A DNA stretch of 51,318 nucleotides from an uncultured Bacteroidales bacterium. GTDB lineage: Bacteria > Bacteroidota > Bacteroidia > Bacteroidales > Marinilabiliaceae. This document shows positions 9,147 through 37,737 of this stretch, one piece after another. A model generated the notes under the pieces. That model did no database searches. It saw only the letters and a list, made by a program, of their open reading frames with translations, and was not told where the DNA came from. Numbering within the stretch: position 1 is the stretch's first letter; every line of letters begins with the position of its first letter. The stretch is taken from positions 1-51,318 of the forward strand of contig CAKVCS010000001.1 in the NCBI GenBank assembly GCA_934725785.1. The letters are read 5' to 3'. Made by a program: the position numbers and the translations under genes.

Positions 9147-9204
9147 AAGTAGAACCTGCGTAGCTTCGCTTTCGTAAAAAGAATCATATCATAACCAGCA
9201 GCCG

Positions 9205-10107
9205 ATGTCACCCATAGCCCTTTTCGTCTATAACCGTCCCGATCACACGCGCCGAACTCTACAGAGCCTCGCTGCCGCCGACGGGGCTGAGCGGTCAGAC
9301 CTTTACATATTCGCCGATGGCCCGAGGGACTCCGACTCTGTGCCAGCGGTGGATGCCGTTCGCGAGCTGTGCCGTGCCGCGTCGGGCTTCGCGAGCGTCT
9401 CCGTCACCGAGCGGGAGGACAACGTTGGTCTGGCAGCCAACATACTTGGTGGCGTCAGCGATGTTATATCCCGCCACGGCCGGGTCATTGTCATTGAGGA
9501 TGATGTCAACGTCTCCCCGTTCTTCCTCAAGTATATGAATGCCGCTCTCGAGTTCTACCGAGGCAGGGGGGTCTTCTCCATTGGCGGGTACACGCCGGAC
9601 ATTTCCATCCCCGCGGATTATCCATACTCCACGTTTGTCATGCACCGCAACTGCTCCTGGGGCTGGGCCACGTGGAAGAGCGAGTGGGACAAGGTTGACT
9701 GGCAGGCCGCCACGTTCGACTCTTTTATCCGCAGCCCGTCTTTGCGCCGTCGCTTCAATGAGCCGGGCGATGACATGACGCCCTTCCTGCTCAGGTGGAA
9801 GACGGGAGCCCGGGAGATGTGGGACATCGTCTTCTCCTATGCGGCATTCCGGGCCGGAGAGCCGCACGTGTACCCGCGCAAGAGCCTCGTAAGGAATGTA
9901 GGGAATGACGGCACAGGCACACACGTGGCGCCGACGACTAAATATGACGCACCGCTCGCGGCAAGCGTAGGCTTGAACAATTTCTGCCCGGGGGTGGCTA
10001 CTAATCCCGCAATCGTCAAGGAGTTCCACAGGTTTTACTCCACATCGGCTTTCCGCAGGGTGGTCAATGCGTTCAAGAGGTGGAGATATGTGCTGTCAGG
10101 CCATTGA
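9205..10107 (+). CDS. GT-A fold glycosyltransferase (GNT-I-like)
   Basis: N-terminal FVYNRPDHTRRTLQSL plus the IVIEDDVNVSP (EDD) motif resemble the GnT-I/GT13-like GT-A layout. Confidence 0.5.
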   Translation: MSPIALFVYNRPDHTRRTLQSLAAADGAERSDLYIFADGPRDSDSVPAVDAVRELCRAASGFASVSVTEREDNVGLAANILGGVSDVISRHGRVIVIEDDVNVSPFFLKYMNAALEFYRGRGVFSIGGYTPDISIPADYPYSTFVMHRNCSWGWATWKSEWDKVDWQAATFDSFIRSPSLRRRFNEPGDDMTPFLLRWKTGAREMWDIVFSYAAFRAGEPHVYPRKSLVRNVGNDGTGTHVAPTTKYDAPLAASVGLNNFCPGVATNPAIVKEFHRFYSTSAFRRVVNAFKRWRYVLSGH

Positions 10108-10215
10108 CCTTACGCCAAGTCTCGTTTGAGGACTGCCGCCATTTGTCTTGCCTCGTCAGCCCGGGACCTGTCCGGAAGAGCGTTTTTTCTTGCCAGAGAG
10201 AGGCGGTGAGGGGTA

Positions 10216-11157
10216 TCACAGCCTCTCCACCTGCTCTGCGCTCAGCCCCGTACAAGCCGATATGGTCGCGGAGTCGATCCCCTTCTCTTTCATACCCTTT
10301 GCCACTCTCTCAATGCCGTCACGGATTCCCTGCTCTTTTCCGATTTCAATTCCCTGCTCTTTTCCGATTTCTTTTCCTATCTCAATCCCCTGCTCCTTAC
10401 CTATCTCCTTCCCAATCTCAATTCCCTGCTCCTTGGCGGTCTCCATCGAGTTCTTGATGTCCCTGTAGGCCTTGAGGCTGTCCTCGTAGGTCTTGAGCTC
10501 CGAGGGCGAGAACTGGGCTATCTCGGCCTTCTGGAACAGTTTGGTGAATACGCGGTCCCTGAGCGCCTTCGGCCTCCCCTCGATCCTGGCCATGTTCTTG
10601 AGCGCGTAGAGCCACTTGTCGCTCAGCGTCTCCAGCTCGTCGGCTCCCTTGTCGAACTTGCCAATCTCGATGTATTTGAATATCAGCTTGTCGTAGAAGG
10701 TCCTGTTCGTGGCCTTGTCCTGCAGCTCCACGTCGTGGCAGATTGCGCCGCTGTCGAACGCCTCGTCGTTGTACGCGAAGTTGAGCAGCGCGATGACGTA
10801 CACCTTGCTCAGCCTGAAGTCCCAGTCGGCCCCTTTCCTCGCCTGCTCGCGGATGGGGTATGTGGCGTAGTAGATGGACCTGTCCTTGAAGTACTTCTGG
10901 TACGCGTTCTGCATCTCGACGATGAACTTCTCGCCCCTCTCGTTTTGGCAGTAGACGTCGAAAATGGCCTTCCTCTCCATCAAGACGTCGCCCACGCTCT
11001 CGCCGTTGAGGTACATGACGTCCGTTACGACCTGCTCCCCCTCGAAGAGCGAGTTGAGGAAGTTGATGAGCAGGTCCTTGTTAGGCTTGGTCCCGAAGAT
11101 CCTCTTGAAGCCGAAGTCGGTCAGCAGGCTTATGTATTTCTCCTCCCGGTCTCGCAT
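10216..11157 (-). CDS. Rpn-family recombination-promoting nuclease / PD-(D/E)XK putative transposase
   Basis: YISLLTDFGFKRIFG ... DVYCQNERGEKFIVEMQNAYQ is the hallmark N-terminal PD-(D/E)XK core of this family. The start is set at ATG 11155-11157 (MRDREEKYISL). Confidence 0.8.
   Translation of the reverse strand: MRDREEKYISLLTDFGFKRIFGTKPNKDLLINFLNSLFEGEQVVTDVMYLNGESVGDVLMERKAIFDVYCQNERGEKFIVEMQNAYQKYFKDRSIYYATYPIREQARKGADWDFRLSKVYVIALLNFAYNDEAFDSGAICHDVELQDKATNRTFYDKLIFKYIEIGKFDKGADELETLSDKWLYALKNMARIEGRPKALRDRVFTKLFQKAEIAQFSPSELKTYEDSLKAYRDIKNSMETAKEQGIEIGKEIGKEQGIEIGKEIGKEQGIEIGKEQGIRDGIERVAKGMKEKGIDSATISACTGLSAEQVERL
10321..10440 (-). repeat. in-frame tandem repeat (24/36-nt units) inside the Rpn C-terminus
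   Basis: The DNA units GATTTCAATTCCCTGCTCTTTTCC and variants encode EQGIEIGKEIGK EQGIEIGKEIGK EQGIEIGK EQGIRDG. Confidence 0.85.
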
Positions 11158-11175
11158 GTCATCTCTGTTTTTGCC

Positions 11176-11183
11176 CAAAAGTA
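11176..11183 (-). promoter_or_regulatory. exact TAnnTTTG (-7) box upstream of the Rpn gene
   Basis: The minus strand reads TACTTTTG, 17-18 nt before the ATG at 11157. Confidence 0.4.
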
Positions 11184-11185
11184 GG

Positions 11186-11219
11186 AATAAAAAATGGCAA
11201 TGGCGCGATGCCATTGCCA
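11186..11219 (-). terminator. rho-independent terminator ending the six-gene vWA/tubulin/TerD operon
   Basis: Perfect 10-bp stem TGGCAATGGC / GCCATTGCCA (11195-11219) with a 5-nt loop, followed on the minus strand by TTTTTTATT. Confidence 0.75.
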
Positions 11220-11267
11220 GCAATATGGGTTGTTGAATTTTATCGACACGAGTCTCAGCGCGCCTGC

Positions 11268-11846
11268 CTATTTGTTATCTCTTAGTATTTCATTCACAAT
11301 GCGCTGGACGCTCTCATACTTCTCTCCGAGCTGCCGTTTCCTGTCCGCTCCGTTGCCGTAGATGCCTTTTATCACGTCTTTTGCCGTGTCATGGTCGCTA
11401 CCGCCGTCGCGCTCTTGCTGCCGGACGATGTCCGGGGCGTCCACCTCTTCTGCTATGTGAGCCTCCTCGCCGCTTTGCTTTGCGGCGGGTGCGGCGCTCT
11501 CTGCCTCGGTCGGGCTGCTGCACCCCTCTGCCGCGGTGGCTGGCGCCGTTGGCGATTCTGGCGTTATTGTTGTCTGTTTCGCAGGTGTTTCTATATGCTT
11601 GGTTTCCTGCGGGTTCGCTGTCAACGCCGATTCTGCGGGCCCGCGTTCCGGCCATAGGGCGAATGCCGCCACGCCGACGGCTACGGCCACAGCAGCTGCG
11701 GCGCATACGACAATAGCCGTGGATGGCCGCCCCTTCCGTGGAGCGGCGTCGGCTCTTTCCTCTTTGCTGAAGTCGAAAGACATGCCGCCGTTCTTCTTCT
11801 CAAAGTCGTATTTGCCTACGCTTCCAGCCTCTTTTTTCTGAGTCAT
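11268..11846 (-). CDS. single-pass membrane protein with a C-terminal CW_7 (Cpl-7) peptidoglycan-binding repeat
   Basis: TM segment AIVVCAAAAVAVAVGVAAFALW, then a low-complexity Pro/Ala/Thr/Glu linker. The C-terminus DVIKGIYGNGADRKRQLGEKYESVQRIVNEIL matches the CW_7 consensus (GxxGNGxxRxxxLGxxYxxVQxxVNxxL). The start is set at ATG 11844-11846. Confidence 0.7.
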   Translation of the reverse strand: MTQKKEAGSVGKYDFEKKNGGMSFDFSKEERADAAPRKGRPSTAIVVCAAAAVAVAVGVAAFALWPERGPAESALTANPQETKHIETPAKQTTITPESPTAPATAAEGCSSPTEAESAAPAAKQSGEEAHIAEEVDAPDIVRQQERDGGSDHDTAKDVIKGIYGNGADRKRQLGEKYESVQRIVNEILRDNK

Positions 11847-11853
11847 ATCCTTG

Positions 11854-12531
11854 CTATGCGTATATGTCGGCAAGAGTGGGCATGCCGCCGGTATAACCTG
11901 TCCCCATTGGCTCAAAGACCCATTCGCCCTCGTCGTTCAATATGATGCGGCCGGCCTCTATGGCCGTCTCGTCGGCGAATTTCTCACTCATGTTGAAGCG
12001 GCAGAGGCTCTCGCCGGTCTCCTCGTTTGTTATCGTTATGGCGGGCGACTCTACGGACTTGAATGTCTCAGTCTGGGCGTCGGGCTTGGCGTATATGGCG
12101 GCTCCGAACACGATGGCGCGAACCGACTCGCTCACCCTGTCAAGCACCACGTGCATGGTTTCGCAATTCTCATCGTCTGCGTCGTCGCCGGCCTCGTCTG
12201 GCGAGCCGATTACGGATGTGTCGGCCGAGACGGGCACCGTCATAGCCTTCCACGCTTTCTTGGTGCGGTGGGCCTGCAGGTTGAACGGCTCTATCTTGCC
12301 TTCTGTCACGTCATCCTCCGAGGATGGGCGCCAGCGGTTGTCCGAGTTGTAGTAGACAAAGTCCTCCCTGCGTGTCAATATGCCGTCTTCTCCCACCAGG
12401 AAGGCGCACACGTCAAGGTCTGCGTCGCCCTTCCACGTCAAGTCTACGCGTATCTTGTTCAGTCCCTCTTCTTTGCCGAAGTTGAATTTCTGCCCCTTTG
12501 CCAGTTCTTTGCCGAAGTTGAATGAGTTCAT
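11854..12531 (-). CDS. TerD-family stress protein
   Basis: LAKGQKFNF...IRVDLTWKGDADLDVCAFLVGEDG...EDFVYYNS ... acidic GDDADDE segment ... VFGAAIY ... WVFEPMGTGYTGGMPTLADIY is the canonical TerD pattern. Confidence 0.85.
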   Translation of the reverse strand: MNSFNFGKELAKGQKFNFGKEEGLNKIRVDLTWKGDADLDVCAFLVGEDGILTRREDFVYYNSDNRWRPSSEDDVTEGKIEPFNLQAHRTKKAWKAMTVPVSADTSVIGSPDEAGDDADDENCETMHVVLDRVSESVRAIVFGAAIYAKPDAQTETFKSVESPAITITNEETGESLCRFNMSEKFADETAIEAGRIILNDEGEWVFEPMGTGYTGGMPTLADIYA

Positions 12532-12544
12532 GTGCTTATGTTTT

Positions 12545-14902
12545 TTAGTCGTTTATATATTTTTCTGCCACTTGGCGCAGGGGGACGTATTCTATGCCGT
12601 ATTCGGCAAAGAGGGTGACTATCTGCCTTATGGTCTGCTTTTGCGCCTCTGTCATGTCCCCATTGGCGCCTTTGGCTATTTCGTCTATGAGTCTTTTGCT
12701 CTTTATGAGCGTCACGCACTCGTCCGCCATGTGCGAGTTGCGCTCGACGGTCGCGAAGTAACGCTTGGCTTCGCCCAGGCGCATGTCGCGCAGCAGCTTA
12801 TACCCGTTGCCCAGCATCTGTGGGCCGCGCTTGGGCGCAGTCTCTTTTTCGGGGGCGGGGGAGGGCTCGCCCGCGGTCTCTCCGATTGCCTTGACCGGTT
12901 CTCCTGGGGCGCTCTCTTCCGTCGCTTGTGGTGTCTCCTGGTCGTCCGTGCCGATACCTGTCAGGGTTTTCACGTAGTCGGTCGCGAGGGGCATCACTTG
13001 CAGTGTACATATCTTGTCTTTTATGGCGTTTGTCTGCAACGCCTGGTATGACACCCCCATCTCGGGTAGGCCCGGTTGAGCGTGCTGGTTGCTGCTGGCG
13101 AATATCAGGACCTGCCTCTTGGTGAAAAGGCTCACGTCGTTGACGTACACATATGGCAGAGACTGGGCTTCCATGTGGCAATATAGCGCGCCAAGTGACG
13201 GGATGCTTATGAAGCCGTATGGTTTAGCCCAGTCGACCGTGGCGTAGCGGCCAGCCTCCGACGCCGAGACTGAGGCGAACGCCGTGGCGAGCGAGTTCTT
13301 CCCAAGGCTCAGCAGGCGGGCGTATTCCGCCTCTATGCGCTGGGCGTACTCTGTCATCTCCTTTTTGAAGTGGACTATGGCTTTACCCTTGTCCACTATG
13401 TTTGTCGCATCTCTGAACGAGGTGAGCTCTGATCGCTCCAGCTCCATGTCGAGCCGGACACTCTCCGCTTTCAGCTTGGCGACCTCGGCCTCTAACTTTT
13501 TATACCTCTCGCTTTTCTCGGTGAGGATTAGGATTTCCTCGTTAGCTTTCAGCGCGTTGTCGCATATGGCGATAATCTTGTCGCATGCCGCGCTTTGGGC
13601 TTTCAGGCTCTCTATCTTGACCCTCCTGTTAGCCCCGCTGCCAGTCAGCCATTCCCATATCCTTGTCCACAGTCGACGGTTGTCGGCCTCGTCTTGCAGG
13701 GCGCAGGCTTCGTCGTCATGCCTCTTTTTGCCTTCCGCGGCCTTCTTTTTCTCGTTTTCGACCCAAGTCCGGAACTCTTCGGACTTCACGCCCCGCACGA
13801 GCCTCGCGTAGTTGCGCTTGAGTGTCTCGAACGCCTCGGTCGTTTCCGCCTGTTGCCGCGAGGACCCGCCGTGTGCGGCGGCTTCAGCCTCTTGAGCCGC
13901 TTTGCGCACCATGTCGCGGGTCAGGAGCGTCTCGCCCAGGGGGCTCTCCTTGCCCATCAGCGGGCCTATATGTTCCTTTATTATGTGGTCAACCTTGGCC
14001 GCTACGTTCTCCTCTCCCGCGGGGCTGCTGTAGTCTGGCTTTTTGAGTCTCGCCGCGAGGCCTTCCATTCTCTTGCGCAGGCCGGTGGGGTTGTCCTCAA
14101 TGTCGAGCGGGTCGTCCGAGCCCATGGGGCACTCGCCGTTCAGGCGAACCTCCACGAGGGCGCGGCTCAACGCCAAGCTCTGCATGCGCTCCACGTCGGG
14201 GGCGAAGTACATGCACTCTGCGTGACCTATGGAGAAGACGTGCGAGCTGACGTTGGTCGGCAGCGCGGCGTTCACCACAAGCCCGCACGTGGCGGGGTCC
14301 GACGCGAGCAGCATGAAGTCCGCCAGCACGCGCGGCAGGCGGAAGTCGTGATGCTCCTCGCCCGTGAATGACGCTCCGCCTTTGATGTTGCGCGTCTCGA
14401 CATACAGGGTGTAGGGCGCCTCCGACTCCGACGTGCGCTCAAGTATGTGCGCCAAGGCCTCCTCGGCCATGACTGACGTCACGTTCGCCGGCCTCTTGGT
14501 GTCATATCCCAGCACGACATGCCACACGGTCAGAGCCCCGAATCCGTTCTTGGGGTCGTTGCGCAAGGCCATGAGCCGTCTGAACGCGCTCTGGTCGAAG
14601 TCGTTCTCGCCATACGGGTTGTCAAGGAAGAAGAGGTTCAGCTTGGCAGTGACTGTCGCTATGCCCGCCGCGCCCATGAACTGCGCTATGTGGTTGGCCA
14701 TCCCGCACCCCATGTCGTCGTCCGCCTCGGTGTCCGAGCCGGGTATGCTGAATTCATACCCCTCGCCCTCGTCGCGGATAAGGCCGTAGGAGACCAGCAT
14801 GTCCGCCGATGCTGTGCGCGGGACGCACTCCTCCGCTATCTGGCGCGCTATGCTGTCGGTCTCGCTCTTGCCGCTGACCACTATGAAATGTGTGCGAGAC
14901 AT
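12545..14902 (-). CDS. 785-aa hypothetical protein with a central coiled coil (partner of the tubulin-like GTPase)
   Basis: Long ORF in an operon with 13-15 nt gaps to its neighbours. Residues about 330-520 are Glu/Lys/Ala/Arg-rich heptad-like sequence. I recognised no catalytic motif. Confidence 0.6.
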   Translation of the reverse strand: MSRTHFIVVSGKSETDSIARQIAEECVPRTASADMLVSYGLIRDEGEGYEFSIPGSDTEADDDMGCGMANHIAQFMGAAGIATVTAKLNLFFLDNPYGENDFDQSAFRRLMALRNDPKNGFGALTVWHVVLGYDTKRPANVTSVMAEEALAHILERTSESEAPYTLYVETRNIKGGASFTGEEHHDFRLPRVLADFMLLASDPATCGLVVNAALPTNVSSHVFSIGHAECMYFAPDVERMQSLALSRALVEVRLNGECPMGSDDPLDIEDNPTGLRKRMEGLAARLKKPDYSSPAGEENVAAKVDHIIKEHIGPLMGKESPLGETLLTRDMVRKAAQEAEAAAHGGSSRQQAETTEAFETLKRNYARLVRGVKSEEFRTWVENEKKKAAEGKKRHDDEACALQDEADNRRLWTRIWEWLTGSGANRRVKIESLKAQSAACDKIIAICDNALKANEEILILTEKSERYKKLEAEVAKLKAESVRLDMELERSELTSFRDATNIVDKGKAIVHFKKEMTEYAQRIEAEYARLLSLGKNSLATAFASVSASEAGRYATVDWAKPYGFISIPSLGALYCHMEAQSLPYVYVNDVSLFTKRQVLIFASSNQHAQPGLPEMGVSYQALQTNAIKDKICTLQVMPLATDYVKTLTGIGTDDQETPQATEESAPGEPVKAIGETAGEPSPAPEKETAPKRGPQMLGNGYKLLRDMRLGEAKRYFATVERNSHMADECVTLIKSKRLIDEIAKGANGDMTEAQKQTIRQIVTLFAEYGIEYVPLRQVAEKYIND

Positions 14903-26991: not shown

Positions 26992-27022
26992 TTTTGATAG
27001 TGTTTTTTTTTGTATACTTTCG
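26992..27022 (+). promoter_or_regulatory. Bacteroides-type promoter for the island operon (TTTG - GTG T9 spacer - TACTTTCG)
   Basis: TTTTGATAGTGTTTTTTTTTGTATACTTTCG, with TTTG at 26993-26996 and a -7-like box at 27015-22 (one mismatch to TAnnTTTG). Confidence 0.4.
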
Positions 27023-27102
27023 TGAAATATAATTTAACGCCACAGGGTGTCGCCAGGTGGCTACGTGTGAGAGGAAAATAAAGGAAGAAGATAATTAGTG
27101 CC

Positions 27103-27960
27103 ATGGAGGCAAACAGCGGTATAAAATGCACATTCTCTGGTCATGAAACTTTTACCTGTAAGTCAATATGGCTGAAGAAAGGCTATGACTTTGTAAAGGA
27201 TGGTCACTCTTTTAGCGATGAGGAGGCTGTGGTTGTTTTGGGAGTGGGCAAGAATATGGTGAGTTCCATAAGGTATTGGCTCCGCGCTTTTGGGCTCATA
27301 AATCAAAGCGGCGAGTTATTGCCTCTGGCCGACTTCATTTTTGACACCGAAACAGGGCGTGACCCGTTTGTGGAAGATGTGCAGACCCTGTGGCTGTTGC
27401 ATTGGAACTTGATATACAGCAACTACGCCAGTCTCTACAGATATGTTTTCCTAAACTTTCACAAAGAGCGCAAGATGTTCAATAAAGAGAACATCTTCAA
27501 ATTTTTGAGACGCAAGAATGACGAAAAGCCATTCGGCGGGGGCGTTTGGAACGATAATACTATAAGCAAGGACATAGCGATGCTTCTCCGTATGTACGTT
27601 TCTCCAAACGGCAGCCAGAACGATGACTATTGCGCTACGTTGATCGATCTGAATTTGATTAGGAGGGTTGGCAAGGACTCTTATGAGTTCAATTATCCCG
27701 CAAAAGCAAAAATCAGCCCGTTGACATTTCTCTATGCTGTCAACAAAATTTCAAACGGCAGCCAAGTAGTCGAATTTGACAAGCTTTTGGAGCTTGCTCT
27801 TATATTTTGTTTGTCGCAGGGCGAGCTGTATGACATATTCAGCCGGCTTACGGAAATCAATCCAAACATTTCATTTGTCAACTCCGCAGGGGAGCAGTTG
27901 TTCGCCGTCAAACAGGATTTCAACGGGTTTGACATTCTCGACATGTATTATAAATCGTGA
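27103..27960 (+). CDS. DUF4007-like protein (SspB-like candidate)
   Basis: N-terminal FSGHETFTCKSIWLKKGYDFV matches my recollection of the DUF4007 N-terminal motif (GHETF...WLxKGY). 285 aa. First gene of the island. Confidence 0.55.
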   Translation: MEANSGIKCTFSGHETFTCKSIWLKKGYDFVKDGHSFSDEEAVVVLGVGKNMVSSIRYWLRAFGLINQSGELLPLADFIFDTETGRDPFVEDVQTLWLLHWNLIYSNYASLYRYVFLNFHKERKMFNKENIFKFLRRKNDEKPFGGGVWNDNTISKDIAMLLRMYVSPNGSQNDDYCATLIDLNLIRRVGKDSYEFNYPAKAKISPLTFLYAVNKISNGSQVVEFDKLLELALIFCLSQGELYDIFSRLTEINPNISFVNSAGEQLFAVKQDFNGFDILDMYYKS

Positions 27961-30900
27961 TGACGATGAAGTTCTCAACATCTGTAAACATTGAGCGAGA
28001 CTGCGGCAAGGGGTTTGATTACGTTGTTACAGCCAATGCGAAACAGGCAATTGGCAAAATTGTTAATCAGTTCTCTGTTGGAATCCATTCTTTCTGTTTG
28101 ATTGGCTCCTACGGAACGGGCAAGTCGAGTTTCCTGCTGGCTTTAGAGCAATGTATGCTATGCTCTCGGCCTTTACCGAGCCAACTTATGACCAACAAAG
28201 GGCAGTTCAATGGATTTACCAAGTTCCGATTCATTAACATAGTTGGCGATTATACTCCGCTGGGAGGATTGCTTGATGCGCACTTACGGCATGAAAAGTT
28301 TCAAGGAGGCAATTTTTTCGAGACGCTTGACGGCCTTTACGCCGAATGCCAAAAAGACGACACATTCCTTGTTTTCGTAGTTGACGAATTCGGCAAGGTG
28401 CTTGAATACGCCGCCAAAAATAATCCGGAAAAGGAAATGTACTTTTTGCAGAAATTCTGCGAATATGTCAATGACACAGATAAGAATATCCTTTTCCTTG
28501 CTACTCTCCACCAAGCTTTTAGCGCATACGCTAAAGATTTAAGGCTTGAGCAAAAGCAGGAGTGGGCGAAAGTAAAAGGCCGCATCGCCGACATCGTTTT
28601 TAAGGAGCCTGTCGAGCAGTTGCTAAATCTCGCTGCGACTAAAATCTCGCGGGAGAGGGGGGGGGCGCGGAGTGTGGCCTGTAGACAGCTTTATGAGTTG
28701 GCACTCACGTCCAGGTTCATCAATGATAGCCTCAAGTCTGATGTCGCGCTGGCTCTGTACCCTATGGATATTTTTGCCGCATACGCTCTAACGGAGGCCA
28801 ATCAGCGTTACGGGCAGAATGAGAGAAGTCTGTTTACTTTCTTAGAATCGAGGGGCGAAGGCTCTATCTCTGACTTTTCACCATCTGGCAATACCCTTTT
28901 CAGCCTCGTCAATGTTTATGACTATGTACGTTACAATTTTTATTCATCATTGACCGAGGTAAATGCCGATTCTTCCAAGTGGTCGGCAATTCTTACTGCA
29001 ATTGAGCGTATAGAGGGGCTTCCCCTTGCGGAGGAGGAGGTAAAAACGGCTGTCTCAATTGTCAAGGTTATCGGGATGCTCAACATTTTTGCTTCTTCGG
29101 CGACAAAAATTGATTCCGATTTCCTTGCGTCATATGCCCGGCTTTCGTTGGGAATTAAGGACGTTCTGCCTTTGCTGGGCAAGTTGCAAAGGGCGCAGAT
29201 TGTCCGTTTTGCGAAATATAAATCGAAATATATACTGTTTGAGGGTACTGATGTCGACATTGAGTTTGGGCTTTATATTGCTTCGCTCGAGTGTAAACGT
29301 TCCGATGACTATGTCGACAAACTGAGGCGGTTTTTCCCTCACCACATTCGCCTCGCGAATGCCCATTTATACCGGACCGGAACGCCCCGATATTTCGAGT
29401 ACCAGATATCGGGCGAACCCGTCAACAAGTCGCCTCATGGTGAGACTGACGGCATTGTCAACCTTATCTTTACAAGGGAGGACGAGTTGCCAGCAATCAA
29501 AGCCAGATGCCTTTCAGTCAAAGGTATGGCTGTCGTTTATTGCATTTTTCGAAATGCGCCGGAGGTGACTGACCATGTTTACAACATAGAGAAATTGCAT
29601 TGGGTAAGGGATTATTTCGTCAAGGATGAAAACGACAAGGTGGCGAATAATGAGATAGAAAGCCTTGTTGAATACGAAGAGTCACTGCTGAGCAAGTCAA
29701 TATTCGACAGTCTCTATTCTGACAAGGTCATGTGGGTTTTCAACGGTGAACCCGTTGACGGAATACATTCCCACAAGGACTTGATGAAGTTCATTTCCTT
29801 AGTTTCCGACCGGGTTTACTATTCAACGCCTGTTTTCAGAAATGAGTTGATAAACAGACAACGCCCGAGCGGGACAATGTCGGTTGCACGGCAGAATTAC
29901 CTGAACGCTTTGCTGGAAAACTCCGATAAGCCTGACATCGGATTTGACAAGGGCAAATTTCCGCCGGAAAAGTCAATATATCTCACAATGTTGAGAAGCA
30001 CAGGGATTCACGTCCCTGCGGGCGACTCGTTCACTTTTTGCGAACCATCAGAGCCGTCTTTCAAGGAGCTGTGGAAATGTTGCATGGAGTTTATCAAGTC
30101 AGCCCGGCAGAAGCGGAGAAAAATCAGTGAGCTTGTCACTTTGCTTTCACAAGCTCCGTTCGGAATGAAGAAAGGTTTTATCGATTGGTGGGTTCCGTCT
30201 TTTCTCATAATTAAGAAAAATGATTTTGCGCTCTATAGTGGAGATGCTTATGTGCCGTTCATAAATAAAGATGTTCTTGGTCTGCTCTATCGCAACCCTA
30301 ATGACATATCTGTGAAGTCTTTCAGTGTAGAGGGCGTGAAGCAGGTGTTTTTTCAAAAATATAGGGAGGCTGTGAATCTGGGGAAGTCTGAATTGAACTC
30401 TAATTCATTCGTAGAGACAATTCGTCCTATCTTAACATTCTACAGGCACTTGAACCCTTATGCCCAAAACACAAGAGATATTCCTACCGAGGCCAGGAAA
30501 TTTCGTGACGTCATTTCGCGAGCAACGGATCCCGAGGTGACATTCTTCGATCAGCTGCCCGAAGCCTTGGGTTTCCGACAGGATGTCATGGTGCGCAACC
30601 CGGAGTCGGTTGATAGTTTTGTCTCTGTTTTGCAAAATGCGATCAGGAGTCTGAGGGGCTGTTACGATGATTTTGTTCGCTCGATTGAACGCCATATCCT
30701 CAATGCGCTCAAGGTCAATGAGAATGAGTTTCCCGCATACAAGCCCATTGTCGATGGTCGGTATAAGTCTGTCAAGGCGGAATTGATGCCCAACGATGTA
30801 AGGACTTTCCACTTGCGACTGACCGGAAGCTATGACAATTATAAAGAGTGGGTCGAGTCGATATCCTATGCGGTTCTCAACAAGCCCCTTGAGAAAATCA

Positions 30901-31178
30901 AGGATGCGGAGAAGACGTTCTTGCTCACTTCGTTGACAGACAAACTTTTCCAGCTCGATGATTATGTAGAGATGCACAAAACTGACAACGAGTCTATTGT
31001 CCGTCTGCATATTACTCAAAATAGAGGAGCGGCAATAGCGAAACAAGTGGTTATCCCGAGCCATAACATCAAAGAGGTTGACCGGTTGGAGAAACGGATT
31101 GAAGATGTGCTCTCATCCGACAACGCCATCAATATGGCAGCTCTTATCAATATGATAAAAAGAAAGTGTAATGGATAA
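27957..31178 (+). CDS. large P-loop NTPase, 1073 aa (SspC-like candidate)
   Basis: Walker A GSYGTGKSS (28104-28130) and Walker B-like FLVFVVDEFGK. The start is GTG 27957 or ATG 27960, overlapping the upstream stop. Confidence 0.6.
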   Translation: MMTMKFSTSVNIERDCGKGFDYVVTANAKQAIGKIVNQFSVGIHSFCLIGSYGTGKSSFLLALEQCMLCSRPLPSQLMTNKGQFNGFTKFRFINIVGDYTPLGGLLDAHLRHEKFQGGNFFETLDGLYAECQKDDTFLVFVVDEFGKVLEYAAKNNPEKEMYFLQKFCEYVNDTDKNILFLATLHQAFSAYAKDLRLEQKQEWAKVKGRIADIVFKEPVEQLLNLAATKISRERGGARSVACRQLYELALTSRFINDSLKSDVALALYPMDIFAAYALTEANQRYGQNERSLFTFLESRGEGSISDFSPSGNTLFSLVNVYDYVRYNFYSSLTEVNADSSKWSAILTAIERIEGLPLAEEEVKTAVSIVKVIGMLNIFASSATKIDSDFLASYARLSLGIKDVLPLLGKLQRAQIVRFAKYKSKYILFEGTDVDIEFGLYIASLECKRSDDYVDKLRRFFPHHIRLANAHLYRTGTPRYFEYQISGEPVNKSPHGETDGIVNLIFTREDELPAIKARCLSVKGMAVVYCIFRNAPEVTDHVYNIEKLHWVRDYFVKDENDKVANNEIESLVEYEESLLSKSIFDSLYSDKVMWVFNGEPVDGIHSHKDLMKFISLVSDRVYYSTPVFRNELINRQRPSGTMSVARQNYLNALLENSDKPDIGFDKGKFPPEKSIYLTMLRSTGIHVPAGDSFTFCEPSEPSFKELWKCCMEFIKSARQKRRKISELVTLLSQAPFGMKKGFIDWWVPSFLIIKKNDFALYSGDAYVPFINKDVLGLLYRNPNDISVKSFSVEGVKQVFFQKYREAVNLGKSELNSNSFVETIRPILTFYRHLNPYAQNTRDIPTEARKFRDVISRATDPEVTFFDQLPEALGFRQDVMVRNPESVDSFVSVLQNAIRSLRGCYDDFVRSIERHILNALKVNENEFPAYKPIVDGRYKSVKAELMPNDVRTFHLRLTGSYDNYKEWVESISYAVLNKPLEKIKDAEKTFLLTSLTDKLFQLDDYVEMHKTDNESIVRLHITQNRGAAIAKQVVIPSHNIKEVDRLEKRIEDVLSSDNAINMAALINMIKRKCNG

Positions 31179-32277
31179 GGTAAGGCATGTGCTGGGAATC
31201 TCCGGAGGCAAGGACAGTGCGGCGTTGGCAATATATTTGAAAGACAAATATCCGGCGCTCGGCATAGACTTCTACACTTGTGACACGAAATGCGAATTGG
31301 CGGAAACAGAGCAACTCGTTGAGAGATTGCGTTCTTATTTGGGTAGGATTACGACGCTCCAAGCTGCCAAGGGAAGTCCGGAACCTACGCCTTTCGACCA
31401 TTTCCTGAAGATTAATGGCGGTTTTCTGCCTTCTGTTCAGCAGAGGTGGTGCACACAGAAAATGAAACTTGCGGAGTTCGAAAAGTATGTAGGCGACGAT
31501 CCCGTGGTCTCCTATGTCGGCATACGTGGCGATGAGGACCGAGATGGCTATGTCTCCTCAAAACCTAATATTCAGTCAGTTTTCCCGTTCCGCAGGAACA
31601 TATGGAGCATCGATGTCATAAACAAGGTCTTGAGCAACGATAACATTAGCAAGTTCAGCGAATGCTATCGCTCCGTTGCCGATACCCGGACTTTTGATGA
31701 GGCCAACAAGGTCCTCACCGCCAAGCTTACAAAGGATTTCTTCTACTCTAAGAAGCTCAATGCGTTGCTCGATATTGACATAAGGGCCTTTAATCACGCC
31801 ACTTTCTGCTTCCTTAAGGAATATACCGATTACCCCGTCGGCAGGTTGGATAATTTCCCTCTGCTTGACAATGAGGATGTCCTCTGTAAAGAGGACATTT
31901 TCAGGATATTGGAGGATAGCGGGGTCGGCGTCCCCGCCTATTACAAACTCATAGATTTTGAGGTGGACGGCAAGACGGGGAAATATTGCCGTAGCCGCTC
32001 AGGATGCTATTTCTGCTTTTTTCAGCAGAAGATTGAGTGGGTTTGGCTCTACGAGCAGCATCCCGACCTGTTTAAGAAAGCGATGGAATATGAAAAAGGC
32101 GGCTACTCTTGGATTCAAGACGAACCTCTTGAAAAACTGATCAGGCCTGAGCGTATACGCCAAATTAAGCTTGACCACATCAAGAAGACCGCGGTTCTCG
32201 AGTCAAAGAACAGAAGCAAGTTACTCATCGACCTGTTCGATGACGACGATGTCAACTGCGCCAATTGCTTTATTTAG
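31171..32277 (+). CDS. PP-loop ATP pyrophosphatase of the PAPS-reductase/DndC/SspD family
   Basis: SGGKDS PP-loop at 31201-31218, QQRWCTQKMK, and the Cys cluster CRSRSGCYFC. There is an 8-nt overlap with the upstream gene. Confidence 0.75.
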   Translation: MDKVRHVLGISGGKDSAALAIYLKDKYPALGIDFYTCDTKCELAETEQLVERLRSYLGRITTLQAAKGSPEPTPFDHFLKINGGFLPSVQQRWCTQKMKLAEFEKYVGDDPVVSYVGIRGDEDRDGYVSSKPNIQSVFPFRRNIWSIDVINKVLSNDNISKFSECYRSVADTRTFDEANKVLTAKLTKDFFYSKKLNALLDIDIRAFNHATFCFLKEYTDYPVGRLDNFPLLDNEDVLCKEDIFRILEDSGVGVPAYYKLIDFEVDGKTGKYCRSRSGCYFCFFQQKIEWVWLYEQHPDLFKKAMEYEKGGYSWIQDEPLEKLIRPERIRQIKLDHIKKTAVLESKNRSKLLIDLFDDDDVNCANCFI

Positions 32278-34554
32278 ATGCTGAAGGGGGTAGAGTTTCC
32301 ATCTCATCGACGTTTTAAGTCGCGGACGGAGTGGGAGCCAATAGGTTTCTTCTCCGACTGCCTCTGTAATGCGACCCAGTTCAACCTGATGCTCGGTTTC
32401 TTTTCCTCATCCGCCATAAACGTACTCGCCGACGGCTTCGCTTTCTTCATCTCCAATGGGGGCCGTATGAATCTGGTTATAAACGACATCCTAACTCAGC
32501 AAGACAAAAATGCCATAGCCGTCGGTGAGTATGCCAAGCCCATCCCTTTTTTTGACATACACGACGTCGAAAGGTTGAAAGCGACGCTGTCCGTGCGGGA
32601 CTCGCATTTTTTCGATTGCATAGCGTGGCTCATACGCAATAATCGTATTGACATAAAGATTGTCGCGCCAAAGGGCGGGGTGGGGATTTCTCACACCAAG
32701 ATGGGTGTTTTCTGTGATGGTGCGAACAAAGTGGGTTTTGACGGATCTTGTAATTTCTCGCGGTCGGCATTGGTGGACAATATCGAGAGTCTCACGGTGT
32801 GCTGCGATTGGGACGGTAACACTGCATCCGCAACCATAGACAGGCTGAGCGATGAGTTCGATCTTGTCTTCTCAGGCAATGATGATAGTGTTGTTTTTGT
32901 GCCCACCGATAAGGTTAAGACCAGTGTCACCGAGTTGTTTAAGGACAAGACTATAGACGAATTGCTTGAAGACGAATACAAATTGATTAAGCACGACTGT
33001 GCAAAATCTGCGCTGCCAGACTCGGTGATAAAGGCTCTGGCAAAAGCCAAGATGAAGATAGAGACCGCGATAGAGATGGGCAAATCAAAGTACGAAGTAC
33101 AGAACGTCGAGTCGATAGGCCTTGTTAAGCCTTGTTTCCCCTATGCGTCCGGCCCTCGCGAATACCAAAAGCAGGCATTCCTGAATTGGAAGAACAATAA
33201 GCAGAAAGGCTTGTTCGCGATGGCGACTGGCACGGGTAAAACCATTACTTCACTAAATTGCCTTCTCGAGATATACAAGAGGTTAGGTTATTACAAAGCT
33301 ATCATTCTTGTACCGACAATAGCGCTTCTTGACCAATGGGAAGCCGAATGCCGTAAGTTTAATTTCCGGACGGTTATAAAAGTTTGCTCCAAGGCCAGTG
33401 ATTGGAAATCGCAGGTAGCGCATATACGTCTGCTCGAAATGACGAACCCCGACAACGATTTATCATACGTTGTTATATCAACATATGCGTCATACGTAAG
33501 GTCTAATGTCTTTAACGAGCTGAACCATTTTACAAAAAACAAGCTCCTGTTGATAGCCGATGAGTGTCATAATATGGGTGGCGGGTTGATGGCTCAGCGC
33601 ATGCAAGACATTAAATATGTGCGCCGCATAGGTCTCTCGGCAACGCCCGATAGGCAGTCTGATGATGTCGGCAACCGCAAGCTTATGGATTTCTTCGGAT
33701 GTGACGGCGGTTACACTTTCGAGTACTCTATGGCCGATGCCATACAGAACGGTGCTTTGTGCCGTTACTACTATTATCCGCACGTAGTTCGACTGACAGA
33801 GAGTGAGATGTCCGACTACGTCGAGCTTTCAAAGGCGATAGTCAAACTCCTTGGGATCAAAGATGACACAGGTCAGGACCGCCTTAAAATGCTAATGCTG
33901 AAACGTAAACGCATAATACATAAGGCGGCCAACAAGCTGCCCATTTTTCAGCAAATAATCGAGCAAAGAATCAAGGAGAAAGGGAATCTGAAATACGCTT
34001 TGGTCTACGTGCCCGAGGGAGACAGGCCTGACAATTACGAGGCTGAAATATCAGATTTGGATGATTCGGGTTGCTCTGATCACGATACAGAGCATCTCAT
34101 TGACGATTTCACTCGGATTGTGCGCGATATTGATTCTCATATTACAGTCCGTAAGTTCACGTCTGTTTCTTCCGACAGAGACGCAATGCTGAAGGATTTC
34201 GCCTCCGGCGCAATCGATGTACTTGTATCAATGAAGTGTTTAGACGAGGGTGTTGACGTCCCGCGAAGTGAGTTGGCCATATTTTGCGCAAGTACGGGAA
34301 ACCCGCGGCAGTTCATACAGCGTCGCGGCCGTGTGCTAAGAACTCATAAAGATAAGCGCTTCGCCGTCATTCACGACCTCGTCGTTGTGCCCGACAATGT
34401 TTTCAATCATGATTGCTATGCTTATGAGAAAAATTTGGTTCAAGCCGAGTTGAGCCGAGTGCGTGATTTTGCGTTGCTCTCAGAGAACATTACCGATACG
34501 GTCAATGAATTGTCCGATGTGTTGCGGCGTTACAATTTGTCCATATTTGAATAG
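32278..34554 (+). CDS. PLD-family (HKD) nuclease domain fused to an SF2 DEAD/DEAH-type helicase
   Basis: HKD-like SHTKMGVFCDG...GSCNFSRSAL (HTK at 32692-32700). Helicase motif I is MATGTGKT (33220-33243), motif II is DECH (33559-33570), motif III is SATP, and motif VI is QRRGRVLR. Confidence 0.8.
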   Translation: MLKGVEFPSHRRFKSRTEWEPIGFFSDCLCNATQFNLMLGFFSSSAINVLADGFAFFISNGGRMNLVINDILTQQDKNAIAVGEYAKPIPFFDIHDVERLKATLSVRDSHFFDCIAWLIRNNRIDIKIVAPKGGVGISHTKMGVFCDGANKVGFDGSCNFSRSALVDNIESLTVCCDWDGNTASATIDRLSDEFDLVFSGNDDSVVFVPTDKVKTSVTELFKDKTIDELLEDEYKLIKHDCAKSALPDSVIKALAKAKMKIETAIEMGKSKYEVQNVESIGLVKPCFPYASGPREYQKQAFLNWKNNKQKGLFAMATGTGKTITSLNCLLEIYKRLGYYKAIILVPTIALLDQWEAECRKFNFRTVIKVCSKASDWKSQVAHIRLLEMTNPDNDLSYVVISTYASYVRSNVFNELNHFTKNKLLLIADECHNMGGGLMAQRMQDIKYVRRIGLSATPDRQSDDVGNRKLMDFFGCDGGYTFEYSMADAIQNGALCRYYYYPHVVRLTESEMSDYVELSKAIVKLLGIKDDTGQDRLKMLMLKRKRIIHKAANKLPIFQQIIEQRIKEKGNLKYALVYVPEGDRPDNYEAEISDLDDSGCSDHDTEHLIDDFTRIVRDIDSHITVRKFTSVSSDRDAMLKDFASGAIDVLVSMKCLDEGVDVPRSELAIFCASTGNPRQFIQRRGRVLRTHKDKRFAVIHDLVVVPDNVFNHDCYAYEKNLVQAELSRVRDFALLSENITDTVNELSDVLRRYNLSIFE

Positions 34555-34560
34555 TGCTAT

Positions 34561-34794
34561 ATGAGTGTGTATCAAACCAAAGATGATAGAATGTTGCAAG
34601 CCGTCATATCAGACGAGCGACTTGTCAACTACTATGGCTACAATCCTAATGACTTCACGTCTATGTCTGACGCCTTAAATTCCGATGTGGTTATAGTTCA
34701 GGCTATTGCCAAAATCATCGATAAATCTGGTCAAGGGTGCAGCGTCACGGAAATTTATAATGAGGTAAGAGATTTGCTAACGGCGAAGATATGA
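34561..34794 (+). CDS. 77-aa hypothetical protein
   Basis: Shares the island's AT-rich composition. Its stop overlaps the next start (ATGA at 34791-34794), which suggests translational coupling. I recognised no motif. Confidence 0.5.
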   Translation: MSVYQTKDDRMLQAVISDERLVNYYGYNPNDFTSMSDALNSDVVIVQAIAKIIDKSGQGCSVTEIYNEVRDLLTAKI

Positions 34795-36965
34795 TTTTAA
34801 AAGAGCTGAAAATAAAAAACTTCCGAAGCTACTATGGCTATAATACCCTTTTATTTTCCAAGGGGCTGACGCTTGTTATTGGCGACAATGGAGATGGGAA
34901 AACAACGTTGTTCGAGGCTTTGGAGTGGTTGTTCAATACAACTGGTGCCCCCCAAAAAGAATCAAACATCTCCGAAATGCGAAAGTCTGAGTTGGAAATT
35001 GGGGAAAGTGATGAGGTATCTGTCTCCTTAAGCTTTGAGCATGACGGACATAAAGAAGTTGAAAAGTCTTTTACTTTCGAGAGGGAGTTAGGCGGCAATA
35101 TTAGCCTTAGGGACTATAAGTTCGTCGGATATTGTATTGATGGCGTTGAACGTTCTCGTACCGAGGGTGCCAAGCTTTTGGACAGATGTTTTGAGCCTGT
35201 AATCCGCACATACTGTTTGTTCAAGGGAGAGAATAAGCTCAACGTTTTTGAAACCCCTGACGCCCTTAAGACATTGGTTGAGACATTCTCAGGTATAAAA
35301 GACTTTGATAAAAAGGTTGACCTTACAAAAAGTTTTGAGGAGAAAGCTGCCAATGTGGTCAGCAAAGCTCTGCAAAACGACAATAAAGTGTCGAAGCAGA
35401 CGAAAGAGCTTACCGATAGAAGAACAGCTCTTTTAAACGAGATACAAGAAATTAAAATTGAGTTAAAAGAAAAGAGAAAGTCAATCGACTGGTATTCTTC
35501 CAAATTGCAGGAATTGGAAAGTAATCAGGACCTCTCAGAGCGCTATCAGCACTTGAAGGTTCGCATAAAAGGATTAGAAGATAAACGTGCTGGTTTAGCC
35601 AAACATGTGAAATGCGACTACAATGCAAAATTATTGGACGAATCATGGATCCTGCGTTCCTTTCCATCTGTCATGAGCGACTTCTCTGCAAAAGTCTCTG
35701 CGTTGAGCAAGGCGAAGAGGAGACTTGATAAGCAAGAGACAGAAAGGCGTGCTATGGCCGATGGCAAGCGTGAGGCTTACACGCAAATTCAGAAACTTGT
35801 AAATGATACAGTCCCACTGCCTTGGAACTTGCCAGACGAACAAACGATGAAGGAGATGATTGACGATGAGGTTTGTAAGGTTTGCGGACGGCCTGCGCCT
35901 AAAGGCTCTGAACCATATGAGTTTATGCGCCATAAACTGCAGGACTATCTTGACCACGTAAAGGCAGAGGCGAATAAGAAATCAAATGATTCTCAAGAGG
36001 AAGAGAAACCTCTGTTCGTCAATTCATTCATTGATGAGTTGCATTCTTTACAAATCAAATTTAGTGGAGACGAGGAGATTGCGGTCGCAAACACAGCAAG
36101 GAAAATTAGTGAGGAGTTAGAGTTCATAAACGCAAGAAAACTTCAGTATAATGAAGTCGATACGCAGCTGAACGATTTGGAAACAGAGGCAAACAACATG
36201 ATATTGCAGTCAGGATTAAGTGATGAACTGTTGTCGAAGAATTTTTCGGATTTAATAGGTTTTTTTGACTCTAAGAGTCATGCGGAAAGGCGCATGACGG
36301 AGTTGGAGGCAGAACTTAAGTCCAAGGAGGAGGAAGTCGAGCGAGTTAAGGAAGCATTGTCACAACTTGAGCCAGAAAGTACTATGACCCAGGTATTGCA
36401 ACGTGTTCATCAAGCTTTTGAAAATATTAGCAAGGCCTTCGAAAATGCCAAAACTCAGAACATTAACAAGTTCCTGCAGATGCTCGAGTCCAAATCAAAT
36501 GAGTATCTTCAAAAATTGAATGAAGGAGACTTCTATGGGGTAATCCATATCTGGAAGTCTATGGGAGACTCTGCGCATATAGAGCTTTGCAGTAAAAATG
36601 GAACACGCATTGAGAACCCCAATGGTGCGCTTAAGACGACAATGTACATGTCTGTCCTCTTCGCGATTTCTGAAATTACAACATTGAAAAGGGAGAAGGA
36701 CTATCCTCTAATCTTTGATGCGCCTACCTCTTCTTTCGGCAGTTTTAATAAGGAGCGTTTCTACAATGTCATCGACTCTATCGACAAGCAGTGCGTTATA
36801 TTCACAAAGGACTTGCTCAATGTAGATAAAGAGACAGGACTGAAAGAGGTTGACTGCCAGACAATCGATAAACTCTCTTGCCCCGTCCTGCGCATCGAGA
36901 AGGTTCTGCCGTTCAACGATAAGGATTTGTCTACTGTTCGAACTGTCATAAAGATAATAAGGTAA
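34791..36965 (+). CDS. SMC/Rad50/DndD-like ABC ATPase with a central CxxC hook
   Basis: N-terminal LKIKNFRSY...VIGDNGDGKTT (Walker A at 34881-34907), long coiled-coil arms, CKVCGRP at residues 362-368 of 724 (35874-35894), and a C-terminal Walker B YPLIFDAPTSSF. Confidence 0.75.
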   Translation: MILKELKIKNFRSYYGYNTLLFSKGLTLVIGDNGDGKTTLFEALEWLFNTTGAPQKESNISEMRKSELEIGESDEVSVSLSFEHDGHKEVEKSFTFERELGGNISLRDYKFVGYCIDGVERSRTEGAKLLDRCFEPVIRTYCLFKGENKLNVFETPDALKTLVETFSGIKDFDKKVDLTKSFEEKAANVVSKALQNDNKVSKQTKELTDRRTALLNEIQEIKIELKEKRKSIDWYSSKLQELESNQDLSERYQHLKVRIKGLEDKRAGLAKHVKCDYNAKLLDESWILRSFPSVMSDFSAKVSALSKAKRRLDKQETERRAMADGKREAYTQIQKLVNDTVPLPWNLPDEQTMKEMIDDEVCKVCGRPAPKGSEPYEFMRHKLQDYLDHVKAEANKKSNDSQEEEKPLFVNSFIDELHSLQIKFSGDEEIAVANTARKISEELEFINARKLQYNEVDTQLNDLETEANNMILQSGLSDELLSKNFSDLIGFFDSKSHAERRMTELEAELKSKEEEVERVKEALSQLEPESTMTQVLQRVHQAFENISKAFENAKTQNINKFLQMLESKSNEYLQKLNEGDFYGVIHIWKSMGDSAHIELCSKNGTRIENPNGALKTTMYMSVLFAISEITTLKREKDYPLIFDAPTSSFGSFNKERFYNVIDSIDKQCVIFTKDLLNVDKETGLKEVDCQTIDKLSCPVLRIEKVLPFNDKDLSTVRTVIKIIR

Positions 36966-36970
36966 CCAAT

Positions 36971-37489
36971 ATGTCCGATAGTTTATTCGATTTGTGGGCC
37001 AGGAGAGACCCGCAGTGGGAGAAAAGGTATGAGGATAACATAGTCAAGAAATTCTGCGACTATGGCCGAGGGGCCACCTCTTTGCGCGAGGATAGGGGTA
37101 AGCTCTTTGGCTCTGGATATGAAATATACATTGTTGCATTTTTCATTGGCTTGTATAACAACCAGAGGCGACAGCTTGTCGATGATGCAAAAAAGCGTAA
37201 GAGTTTTGGACACCCAATTCAAAATTGGGGGAATATAACTGCTTCAGTTGCGAATGGCAGGAAACCTTACCCCAAACTGCGTAAGTTTATTTTCATAGCT
37301 CTCATAGCTCGTGCCGACATTGATTTCATCGCACTTGAAGAAGGCGATATTAAGCCAGCCAAGGCTGTCGATATGTTAGTACAGCTGATGGAGGAATACG
37401 CCAATTGGGGCTTCCATTTTATTGAGGATAAGATGGAGGACGACGCAAATTATTTTTTCGTGAAACTGCTTTCCTCGAAGTCTTTTTAG
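36971..37489 (+). CDS. 172-aa hypothetical protein (last island gene)
   Basis: Island-like composition, 5 nt after the preceding stop. Notable segments are GYEIYIVAFFIGLY and MEEYANWGFHF. I could not assign a family with confidence. Confidence 0.5.
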   Translation: MSDSLFDLWARRDPQWEKRYEDNIVKKFCDYGRGATSLREDRGKLFGSGYEIYIVAFFIGLYNNQRRQLVDDAKKRKSFGHPIQNWGNITASVANGRKPYPKLRKFIFIALIARADIDFIALEEGDIKPAKAVDMLVQLMEEYANWGFHFIEDKMEDDANYFFVKLLSSKSF

Positions 37490-37606
37490 GTTTTGACGCA
37501 CCAGACGGCAAAAGAACGGATGACGGTGAGCCCGAATCGTTAGACTGAGAGGATGATTAAGCTGCTCATCTCGTTACATATAATCTCGTAGCATTCTAAA
37601 AACCAC

Positions 37607-37644
37607 GAAGCCGGGCGGCGAGGACACTCTCGCCGCCCGGCTTC
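37607..37644 (-). terminator. rho-independent terminator of tRNA-Leu (possibly bidirectional, also closing the island operon)
   Basis: Perfect 16-bp stem GAAGCCGGGCGGCGAG / CTCGCCGCCCGGCTTC with a 6-nt loop. The minus strand continues GTGGTTTTTAG. Confidence 0.75.
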
Positions 37645-37655
37645 TTCAGTTCCCG

Positions 37656-37737
37656 TACCCTGACCCGGGATCGAACCGGGACGGATCGCTCCATTGGTGT
37701 TTGAGACCAACGCGTCTACCAATTCCGCCATCAGGGC
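37656..37737 (-). tRNA. tRNA-Leu (anticodon CAA)
   Basis: The reverse complement folds by hand: acceptor GCCCTGA/TCAGGGT, D-arm GCG-GAATTGGTAGA-CGC, anticodon stem TTGGT/ACCAA with loop CTCAAAC, long variable arm TGGAGCGATCCGT, T-arm CCCGG-TTCGATC-CCGGG, discriminator A. No encoded CCA. Confidence 0.9.

Follow-up and report, generated by a model that had tools for sequence, protein, structure and literature searches.

The system closest to the genes considered here is PbeABCD. In Haloterrigena jeotgali A29 it comprises a helicase (PbeA), a protein of 66 amino acids (aa; PbeB), an SMC-like protein (PbeC) and a protein of 152 aa (PbeD) (PMC6459918). The archaeal prototype which was tested experimentally is linked to Dnd genes; it needed all four pbe genes as well as phosphorothioation (PT) in the host, and it halted the replication of viral DNA (PMC6459918). 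Under the name of 'CxC ABC ATPase-DndE' system, the same module is described in PMC10853773 as made of an HKD nuclease-SF2 helicase (PbeA), a small and rapidly evolving protein (PbeB), a 'CxC' zinc-hook ABC ATPase which is sister to DndD (PbeC) and a DndE of clade 2 built of two ribbon-helix-helix units (PbeD). Whether Pbe cuts DNA is disputed (PMC6459918 versus PMC10853773). In the literature that we searched, which excluded the 2020 paper defining the CxC clade, no statement pairs Ssp with Pbe: Pbe is treated alongside Dnd or methylases, and Ssp is given SspE and SspFGH as its restriction partners. Neither Ssp nor CxxC occurs as a term in the supplement of the 2024 paper. We analysed a stretch of 51,318 nucleotides (nt) from an uncultured Bacteroidales bacterium (contig CAKVCS010000001.1 of assembly GCA_934725785.1; this whole stretch is called the window below), and in it a trio of genes encoding proteins of 77, 724 and 172 aa. 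The trio forms the 3' end of an island of seven genes, sspBCD-pbeABCD (27103-37489, plus strand). Together with the PLD-helicase encoded immediately upstream, it most probably constitutes a PbeABCD-type module which, with sspBCD, would make up an SspBCD-PbeABCD system of PT modification and restriction. Five points are established by the analysis: the homology of the 724-aa protein to PbeC, the transitive homology of the 172-aa protein to PbeD, the strict synteny with PbeA, the frequent adjacency of sspBCD and the invariant CxxC at the apex of an antiparallel coiled coil.

The largest gene of the trio (34791-36965, plus strand) encodes a pbeC-like coiled-coil ABC ATPase of 724 aa, as judged from hhalign, PADLOC and AlphaFold2. 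Its Walker A codons (GDNGDGKT, residues 31-38) lie at 34881-34904 of the plus strand, and G31, N33, G36 and K37 are invariant or nearly so in an alignment of 64 sequences. The codons of the hook, C362-K-V-C365, lie at 35874-35885 (plus strand), and those of the Walker B motif and D-loop, YPLIFDAP (residues 638-645, of which D643 and A644 are invariant), at 36702-36725 (plus strand). The ABC head motifs and the exactly central CxxC noticed in a preliminary description of this DNA are thus real: CKVCGRP occupies residues 362-368, which places C362 at 0.50 of the protein length (362/724). An AlphaFold2 model, computed with 64 diverse relatives as input (mean pLDDT 86), has an N-terminal head (residues 1-145) and a C-terminal head (584-724), joined by a helical arm (172-337) and a returning one (374-576), and the hairpin between the arms (361-368) holds both cysteines. 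The coiled-coil insert is thereby about 400 aa long (172-576) and not about 600 aa as first estimated. The top fold match of the model in the PDB is Rad50 (7zr1, E=1e-20), followed by SMC, MukB, JetC and LmuB. The initial view of the architecture, an ABC ATPase that resembles Rad50, carries a zinc hook and is akin to DndD, was right.

The CxxC of this protein is not a chance motif, because all 120 close homologues examined keep CKVC at about residue 362 and because exactly one mid-protein CxxC is present in each of the 99 full-length representatives of clusters at 50% identity, which are 26-51% identical. In the 64-sequence alignment C362 and C365 are invariant columns, like the lysine of Walker A and the aspartate of Walker B. 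A lack of conservation among homologues, which the preliminary description had named as a refutation, was not what we found. The family is large and well conserved, with 2267 homologues and about 150 clusters at 50% identity, and is common in Bacteroidales from metagenomes and metagenome-assembled genomes. Of the ABC signature it has a degenerate form (N-x-[SA]-L-x-T-T), and the Walker B aspartate of the 724-aa protein is not followed by a glutamate, which is also the case in DndD and in canonical PbeC (DTP/DSP).

For comparison we used four canonical cassettes from plasmids: L037 from Pontibrevibacter, linked to dndBCDE; L038 from Haloprofundus, linked to a methylase; L039 from Pseudanabaena; and L040 from a member of the Sphingomonadaceae, linked to sspABCD. 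Aligned by hhalign with the PbeC proteins of these four, the 724-aa family gave E=1e-38; the alignment spans 586 columns and brings the two hooks into register. BLAST of the 724-aa protein gave 3e-15 for PbeC vs 2e-5 for DndD. The homology to the coiled-coil ABC ATPase clade by which PbeC is recognised is thus present at the level of sequence profiles. Across the lineage the hook reads C-x-x-C-G-[RT], vs C-x-C-G in the four canonical proteins. The profile alignment places the two at a homologous position with a gap of one residue, and the CxxC hook is a one-residue variant of the canonical CxC feature.

Immediately upstream of the trio, pbeA (32278-34554, plus strand) encodes a PLD/HKD nuclease fused to an SF2 (DEAH) helicase, for which PADLOC gives a full-length match to PbeA (E=0). 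The Pfam domains ResIII, Helicase_C and PLDc_2 and the motifs H-x-K...G-S-x-N and DECH were found in it. Its match to TIGR04095 (dnd_restrict_1) is 1.5e-116 with 390 bits, under the curated cut-off of 600 bits, and it is 29% identical over its full length to PbeA of the dnd-linked and methylase-linked cassettes. A TIGR04095-type HKD-SF2 helicase, as expected of PbeA, thus stands directly upstream.

The last gene of the trio (36971-37489, plus strand) encodes 172 aa in its present form and is separated from pbeC by 5 nt (ccaat); its homologues are typically of 190-191 aa. We describe it as pbeD-like, of the divergent DndE clade-2 or TIGR04062 type. Its family aligns with canonical PbeD by hhalign (probability 90%, E=1.7e-6), and a motif EEYAN(G/W)G in the long core helix is common to both. 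TIGR04062 ('DNA phosphorothioation-associated protein 4') matches canonical PbeD at 1e-47 and reaches distant members of the 172-aa family as well (1e-10 in L017, 9e-9 in L018 and 7e-4 in L012). The family profile gave nothing other than chance matches to Mss116 among PDB sequences. An AlphaFold2 model (pLDDT 82, pTM 0.81) has two short strands, five main helices and, past the first helix, a loop of 20 residues predicted with low confidence; this disordered H1a-H2a loop and the topology agree with the description of clade-2 DndE in PMC10853773, and DndE (4lrv, 5wtu) is the top fold match in the PDB. By transitive homology, the 172-aa protein can be taken as a divergent PbeD, and the fourth component of the cassette would be in place. 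Some homologues of this protein deserve separate mention. In L007 the PbeD-like open reading frame (ORF) extends over 382 aa (10049-11197), of which the first ~160 residues match PbeD while the ~220 extra residues have no Pfam match; the cause may be either a gene fusion or the loss of the stop codon. Among the homologues P0128, P0174, P0191, P0200 and P0221, several PbeD-like proteins are labelled 'glycoside hydrolase family 15' at NCBI, which looks like a propagated mis-annotation, and two homologues have a precomputed Pfam match to PF27807.

The first gene of the trio, an ORF of 77 aa (34561-34794, plus strand), begins 6 nt past pbeA, and its stop overlaps the start of pbeC (ATGA, read in the sequence as ..AAG ATA TGA / ATG ATT..). 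The three ORFs, this overlap and the 5-nt spacer all lie where the preliminary description had placed them. In the loci L001-L009 and L043-L045 the 77-aa protein is 36-61% identical to ours, PbeA there being 48-76% identical, and its conservation is the lowest among the four Pbe proteins. An ORF of 72-80 aa precedes pbeC in all 15 genome loci with a complete pbeC. The 77-aa protein has no family match in Pfam or NCBIfam, nor in PADLOC even at E<=10, and the alignment of its family with canonical PbeB by hhalign (probability 4%) reveals no detectable homology. Hence the two flanking ORFs, which had been called unknown, do lack a direct family match, but they occupy the positions of PbeB and PbeD.

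We then asked which genes accompany this ATPase. The sample consisted of 18 genome loci encoding the family ATPase, mostly from Bacteroidota, plus three loci from IMG/VR. PbeA is directly upstream in 17 of the 18 genome loci, the exception (L013) holding only the last third of pbeC, and the order pbeA-B-C-D recurs in all three IMG/VR loci. Of the 15 loci whose pbeC is complete, 14 have a PbeD-like gene of 163-200 aa as the next one, and in the other, L017, an inserted transposase comes before it. The genes sspBCD lie at most 10 kb away in 13 of the 18 genome loci, among them all those with full flanks on both sides, so that no intact cassette without ssp was seen among loci with full flanks. 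The five genome loci without sspBCD either break off at contig ends or are remnants. In one of these (L016) a cysteine desulfurase abuts pbeA, and in another (L017) the gene at the contig end weakly matches the N-terminal GmrSD domain, which is of a type that SspE has as well. In the IMG/VR locus L044, ssp is absent within ~7.5 kb, and two ORFs stand in place of pbeA and two in place of pbeC, both genes being split. Three details of these loci may be recorded here: the transposase between pbeC and pbeD of L017 (12248-13099) is of the PD-(D/E)XK type, the remnant of L013 (10001-10726) consists of the C-terminal third of pbeC and of pbeD, and two GmrSD-type genes adjoin the decayed cassette of L044 (7488-12172).

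The degrees of identity within these loci differ between the two modules. L010 has the SspB, SspC and SspD nearest to ours (76, 70 and 83% identity) yet remote PbeA, PbeC and PbeD (59, 38 and 43%). The nearest Pbe proteins are those of L001 and L002 (65-76% for PbeA, PbeC and PbeD, 58-61% for PbeB), where SspB (39-55%) and SspC (42%) are more remote. To judge from these identities, the Ssp and Pbe modules have been shuffled independently.

The intact canonical cassettes (L037, L038 and L040) have the gene order of the window and similar sizes: 694, 63, 683 and 143 aa for A to D in L037, an annotated 67 aa for B and 152 aa for D in L038, and 74, 693 and 148 aa for B to D in L040. In L039 other genes stand between pbeC and pbeD. 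The stop of B overlaps the start of C in L037, L038 and L039, and the two are 1 nt apart in L040. The last of these cassettes (plasmid CP099618.1 of a member of the Sphingomonadaceae, 1709-12807) holds all eight genes in the order sspA-sspB-sspC-sspD-pbeA-B-C-D, and its hook is of the canonical CxC type. Ssp and Pbe are therefore coupled outside the CxxC lineage and outside Bacteroidota as well. What the window has in common with PbeABCD is the succession of an HKD-SF2 helicase, a protein of ~60-80 aa, a hooked ABC ATPase and a DndE-type protein of ~145-190 aa, the overlap of the B stop with the C start, the contact of this cassette with PT modification genes, and the homology of PbeC and PbeD at profile level. 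It differs in its partner, which is SspBCD (single-strand PT) and not DndCDEA or a methylase, in a PbeC which is ~40-60 aa longer and has the degenerate signature motif, in a longer PbeD with a Bacteroidales-specific acidic tail, and in a PbeB unrelated in sequence.

Several observations weigh against the assignment to PbeABCD. The best PADLOC match of the 724-aa protein, PbeC at 1e-21, covers its N-terminal 270 residues only, and the CxC hook which defines the clade is replaced by CxxC in 99 of the 99 representatives. The 172-aa protein of the window itself has no direct match in Pfam, NCBIfam, TIGR04062 or PADLOC (E<=10), and its fold match to DndE is weak (E ~1, probability 0.23). The 77-aa ORF is PbeB by position and size alone. 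The sample of 18 genome loci is small, several of its contigs being truncated. Finally, pbeD is frameshifted in this strain.

This frameshift is the basis of the alternative which survives best. A homopolymer T6 at 37453-37458 (plus strand) has apparently lost one nucleotide, since T7 would restore the frame. Past it, the next frame encodes RETAFLEVFLGFDAPDGKRTDDGEPESLD followed by a stop, which matches the conserved C-terminus of the homologues (..ETAFLEVFL..DEPESLD); as judged from translation against the homologue alignments, this out-of-frame remainder (37459-37548, plus strand) corresponds to the C-terminal helix and the acidic tail. The C-terminal helix of PbeD has been proposed as a contact with the ATPase (PMC10853773), and deletion of pbeD in the archaeal prototype abolished protection (PMC6459918). 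As the frameshift removes this helix and the prototype needs pbeD, the module of this strain may be impaired, its activity being reduced or lost. It is possible, though somewhat doubtful, that we are dealing with a decaying and non-functional copy, next to which SspBCD modification persists as an orphan. The lost helix is kept in aligned full-length relatives, a nearly identical strain, differing at 0-6 positions over as much as 22 kb, has the same T6 in three further assemblies, and degraded copies exist elsewhere (L013, L044 and L017), all of which speaks for decay. However, all the other genes are intact and the core of PbeD (residues 1-161) is kept; switching between T6 and T7 could be reversible, or the missing T could be an artefact of assembly common to related data sets, and other shortened PbeD-like forms exist, in clusters of 169 and 182 aa.

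According to another explanation, close to the first one offered in the preliminary description (a DndD-like module serving the PP-loop enzyme), PbeC and PbeD would be a DndD-DndE-like scanning unit which helps SspBCD to place or check phosphorothioates and has no part in restriction. PbeC and PbeD are indeed paralogous to DndD and DndE, which form the core of the Dnd modification machinery, the pair has been suggested to 'signal modification status' (PMC10853773), and the seven genes form one tightly packed unit. We nevertheless regard this role as improbable: published Ssp systems modify DNA by SspABCD alone (PMC8092258), the PbeC-PbeD pair is always joined to the nuclease-helicase PbeA and is also found beside methylases (L038) or without nearby modification genes (PMC6459918), and the Ssp and Pbe modules shuffle independently. 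That the trio is an independent ABC-ATPase defence system of the Lamassu, Gabija or PtuA kind, stacked on the others as defence genes often are, is very improbable in spite of partial PADLOC matches to LmuB (4e-21), GajA and PtuA, which reach no further than the common ABC head or a portion of the coil, since PbeC is the profile that matches best and does so along the whole protein, the partners LmuA/LmuC, GajB and PtuB are absent, and no intact trio without PbeA was found in the 18 genome loci and the three IMG/VR loci. The preliminary description would have accepted a separate system had the trio regularly occurred alone; it was never separable from the PLD-helicase across the loci examined, and hence we do not consider it as one. 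The association with the PLD-helicase suggested there is supported by the strict synteny of PbeA, while the Lamassu/Wadjet logic invoked for it holds as an analogy only.

Returning to the PbeABCD-type module, we infer a mechanism from the protein families involved, its direct support being limited to the genetics of the archaeal prototype. Two PbeC protomers would be joined by a shared Zn2+ on four cysteines, as in Rad50, giving a dimer with two arms of ~25 nm each, whose heads would engage upon ATP binding and clamp DNA. PbeD, as a double ribbon-helix-helix protein of the DndE type, would sit on the heads and read the DNA sequence, its PT status or both. PbeA would be the effector, a translocase and nuclease acting on DNA without the single-strand PT mark made by SspBCD; it could damage this unmarked DNA or block its replication, and its single HKD domain would have to pair with that of another copy. 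PbeB might be a fast-evolving regulator or a trigger sensor which modulates the complex.

Other known systems resemble the trio in part. Rad50/SbcC shares with the ATPase of the window the ABC head, the antiparallel coiled coil and the apical CxxC zinc hook, and it is the nearest structural match; but the coil is far shorter here (~400 aa) and Walker B lacks the catalytic glutamate. An identity with Rad50/SbcC was rejected, as there is no Mre11/SbcD in the island and the NCBIfam scores are 47 vs 700 bits for Rad50 and 27 vs 478 bits for SbcC. DndD-DndE is the sister clade, in which a coiled-coil ABC ATPase is likewise paired with a double ribbon-helix-helix protein, and the 'GE' motif and the D-[TSA]-P of Walker B are common to both. 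However, the DndD of L037 has no cysteine hook while the ATPase of the window has one, and DndD goes together with DndC/DndB where the window has an HKD-helicase. We did not retain DndD as the identity of the 724-aa protein: it has the hook, its neighbours are sspBCD and pbeA, BLAST matches DndD only over the first 50 residues, and the DndD family is absent from the NCBIfam output for this protein. SspE and SspFGH occupy the niche directly adjoining sspBCD and presumably fulfil the role which Pbe would have here. Neither of them is related to it in sequence, and SspE is of the GmrSD type (DUF262-DUF1524; PMC8092258). The trio was also rejected as SspFGH, the features of SspF, SspG and SspH being different, among them a Walker A motif in SspF and an FtsK-like C-terminus in SspH (PMC8092258). 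LmuB of Lamassu and JetC of Wadjet are, like the ATPase of the trio, coiled-coil ABC ATPases serving as DNA sensors which control a nuclease, but their partners are other ones, and neither a kleisin nor LmuA/LmuC is present here; this is a likeness of logic, not membership. Membership in Lamassu was discarded, LmuA and LmuC being absent beside the trio and the PADLOC match to LmuB partial (residues 303-674).

With respect to published descriptions, the new elements are SspBCD as the partner and the CxxC hook, PbeABCD itself having already been described. About 84% of sspBCD clusters were reported as 'orphans' (PMC8092258); for most sspBCD clusters no restriction partner is known, and the mechanism of PbeABCD, down to the cutting of DNA, is disputed. 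We propose tentatively, and with rather more doubt than for the identity of the module, that Pbe with a CxxC hook is a distinct, mainly Bacteroidota lineage acting as dedicated restriction partner of single-strand-PT Ssp. If so, it would be a class of Ssp effectors beside SspE and SspFGH and would explain a part of the 'orphan' sspBCD clusters; given the independent shuffling of Ssp and Pbe, its PbeC-PbeD sensor would recognise PT as such and not a sequence motif paired with it. The presence of Ssp and Pbe in one operon may lead to genetically tractable hosts for testing how PT is read by an ABC-ATPase/DndE sensor, for which CxxC versus CxC offers a natural hook variant. There is also a gap in annotation: the PADLOC models of PbeB and PbeD, Pfam and NCBIfam miss the small subunits of the CxxC lineage, so that automated calls of defence systems probably report the cassette as incomplete.

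The remainder of the island is made of the Ssp genes. The first one, sspB (DUF4007), lies at 27103-27960 (plus strand; PADLOC SspB 2e-82, Pfam DUF4007 1e-73). It overlaps by 4 nt sspC, the large ATPase of the Ssp modification module (27957-31178, plus strand; PADLOC SspC E=0, full length), which itself overlaps by 8 nt sspD, a PAPS-reductase/PP-loop enzyme (31171-32277, plus strand; PADLOC SspD 2e-85, besides weak matches to DndC). The start of pbeA is the base right after the stop of sspD, and within the seven-gene block no two neighbours overlap by more than 8 nt or lie more than 6 nt apart. No sspA was found in the island, the remainder of the window not having been searched for it; in published Ssp systems iscS can stand in for sspA (PMC8092258). 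With sspB, sspC and sspD adjacent to each other, the locus is predicted to encode an SspABCD-type modification module. No convincing promoter was found upstream of sspB by scans for sigma-70 and for the Bacteroides -7 element TAnnTTTG.

No integrase was seen among the family matches of the island genes or of their neighbours, and the longest word common to the island edges and the tRNA gene described below, as a search for att-like direct repeats, is of 10 nt, which is the chance level. The island stands out by its composition, with a GC content of 43-47% (window positions 27000-37650) vs 58-66% in the flanks. Its downstream edge is marked by a tRNA-Leu(CAA) gene on the minus strand (37655-37737). 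Between the island and this gene lies a perfect, GC-rich hairpin of 16 bp (37607-37644, no strand being assigned to the feature), which scores as a terminator for the minus-strand tRNA-Leu gene and at which transcription of the island operon may end too.

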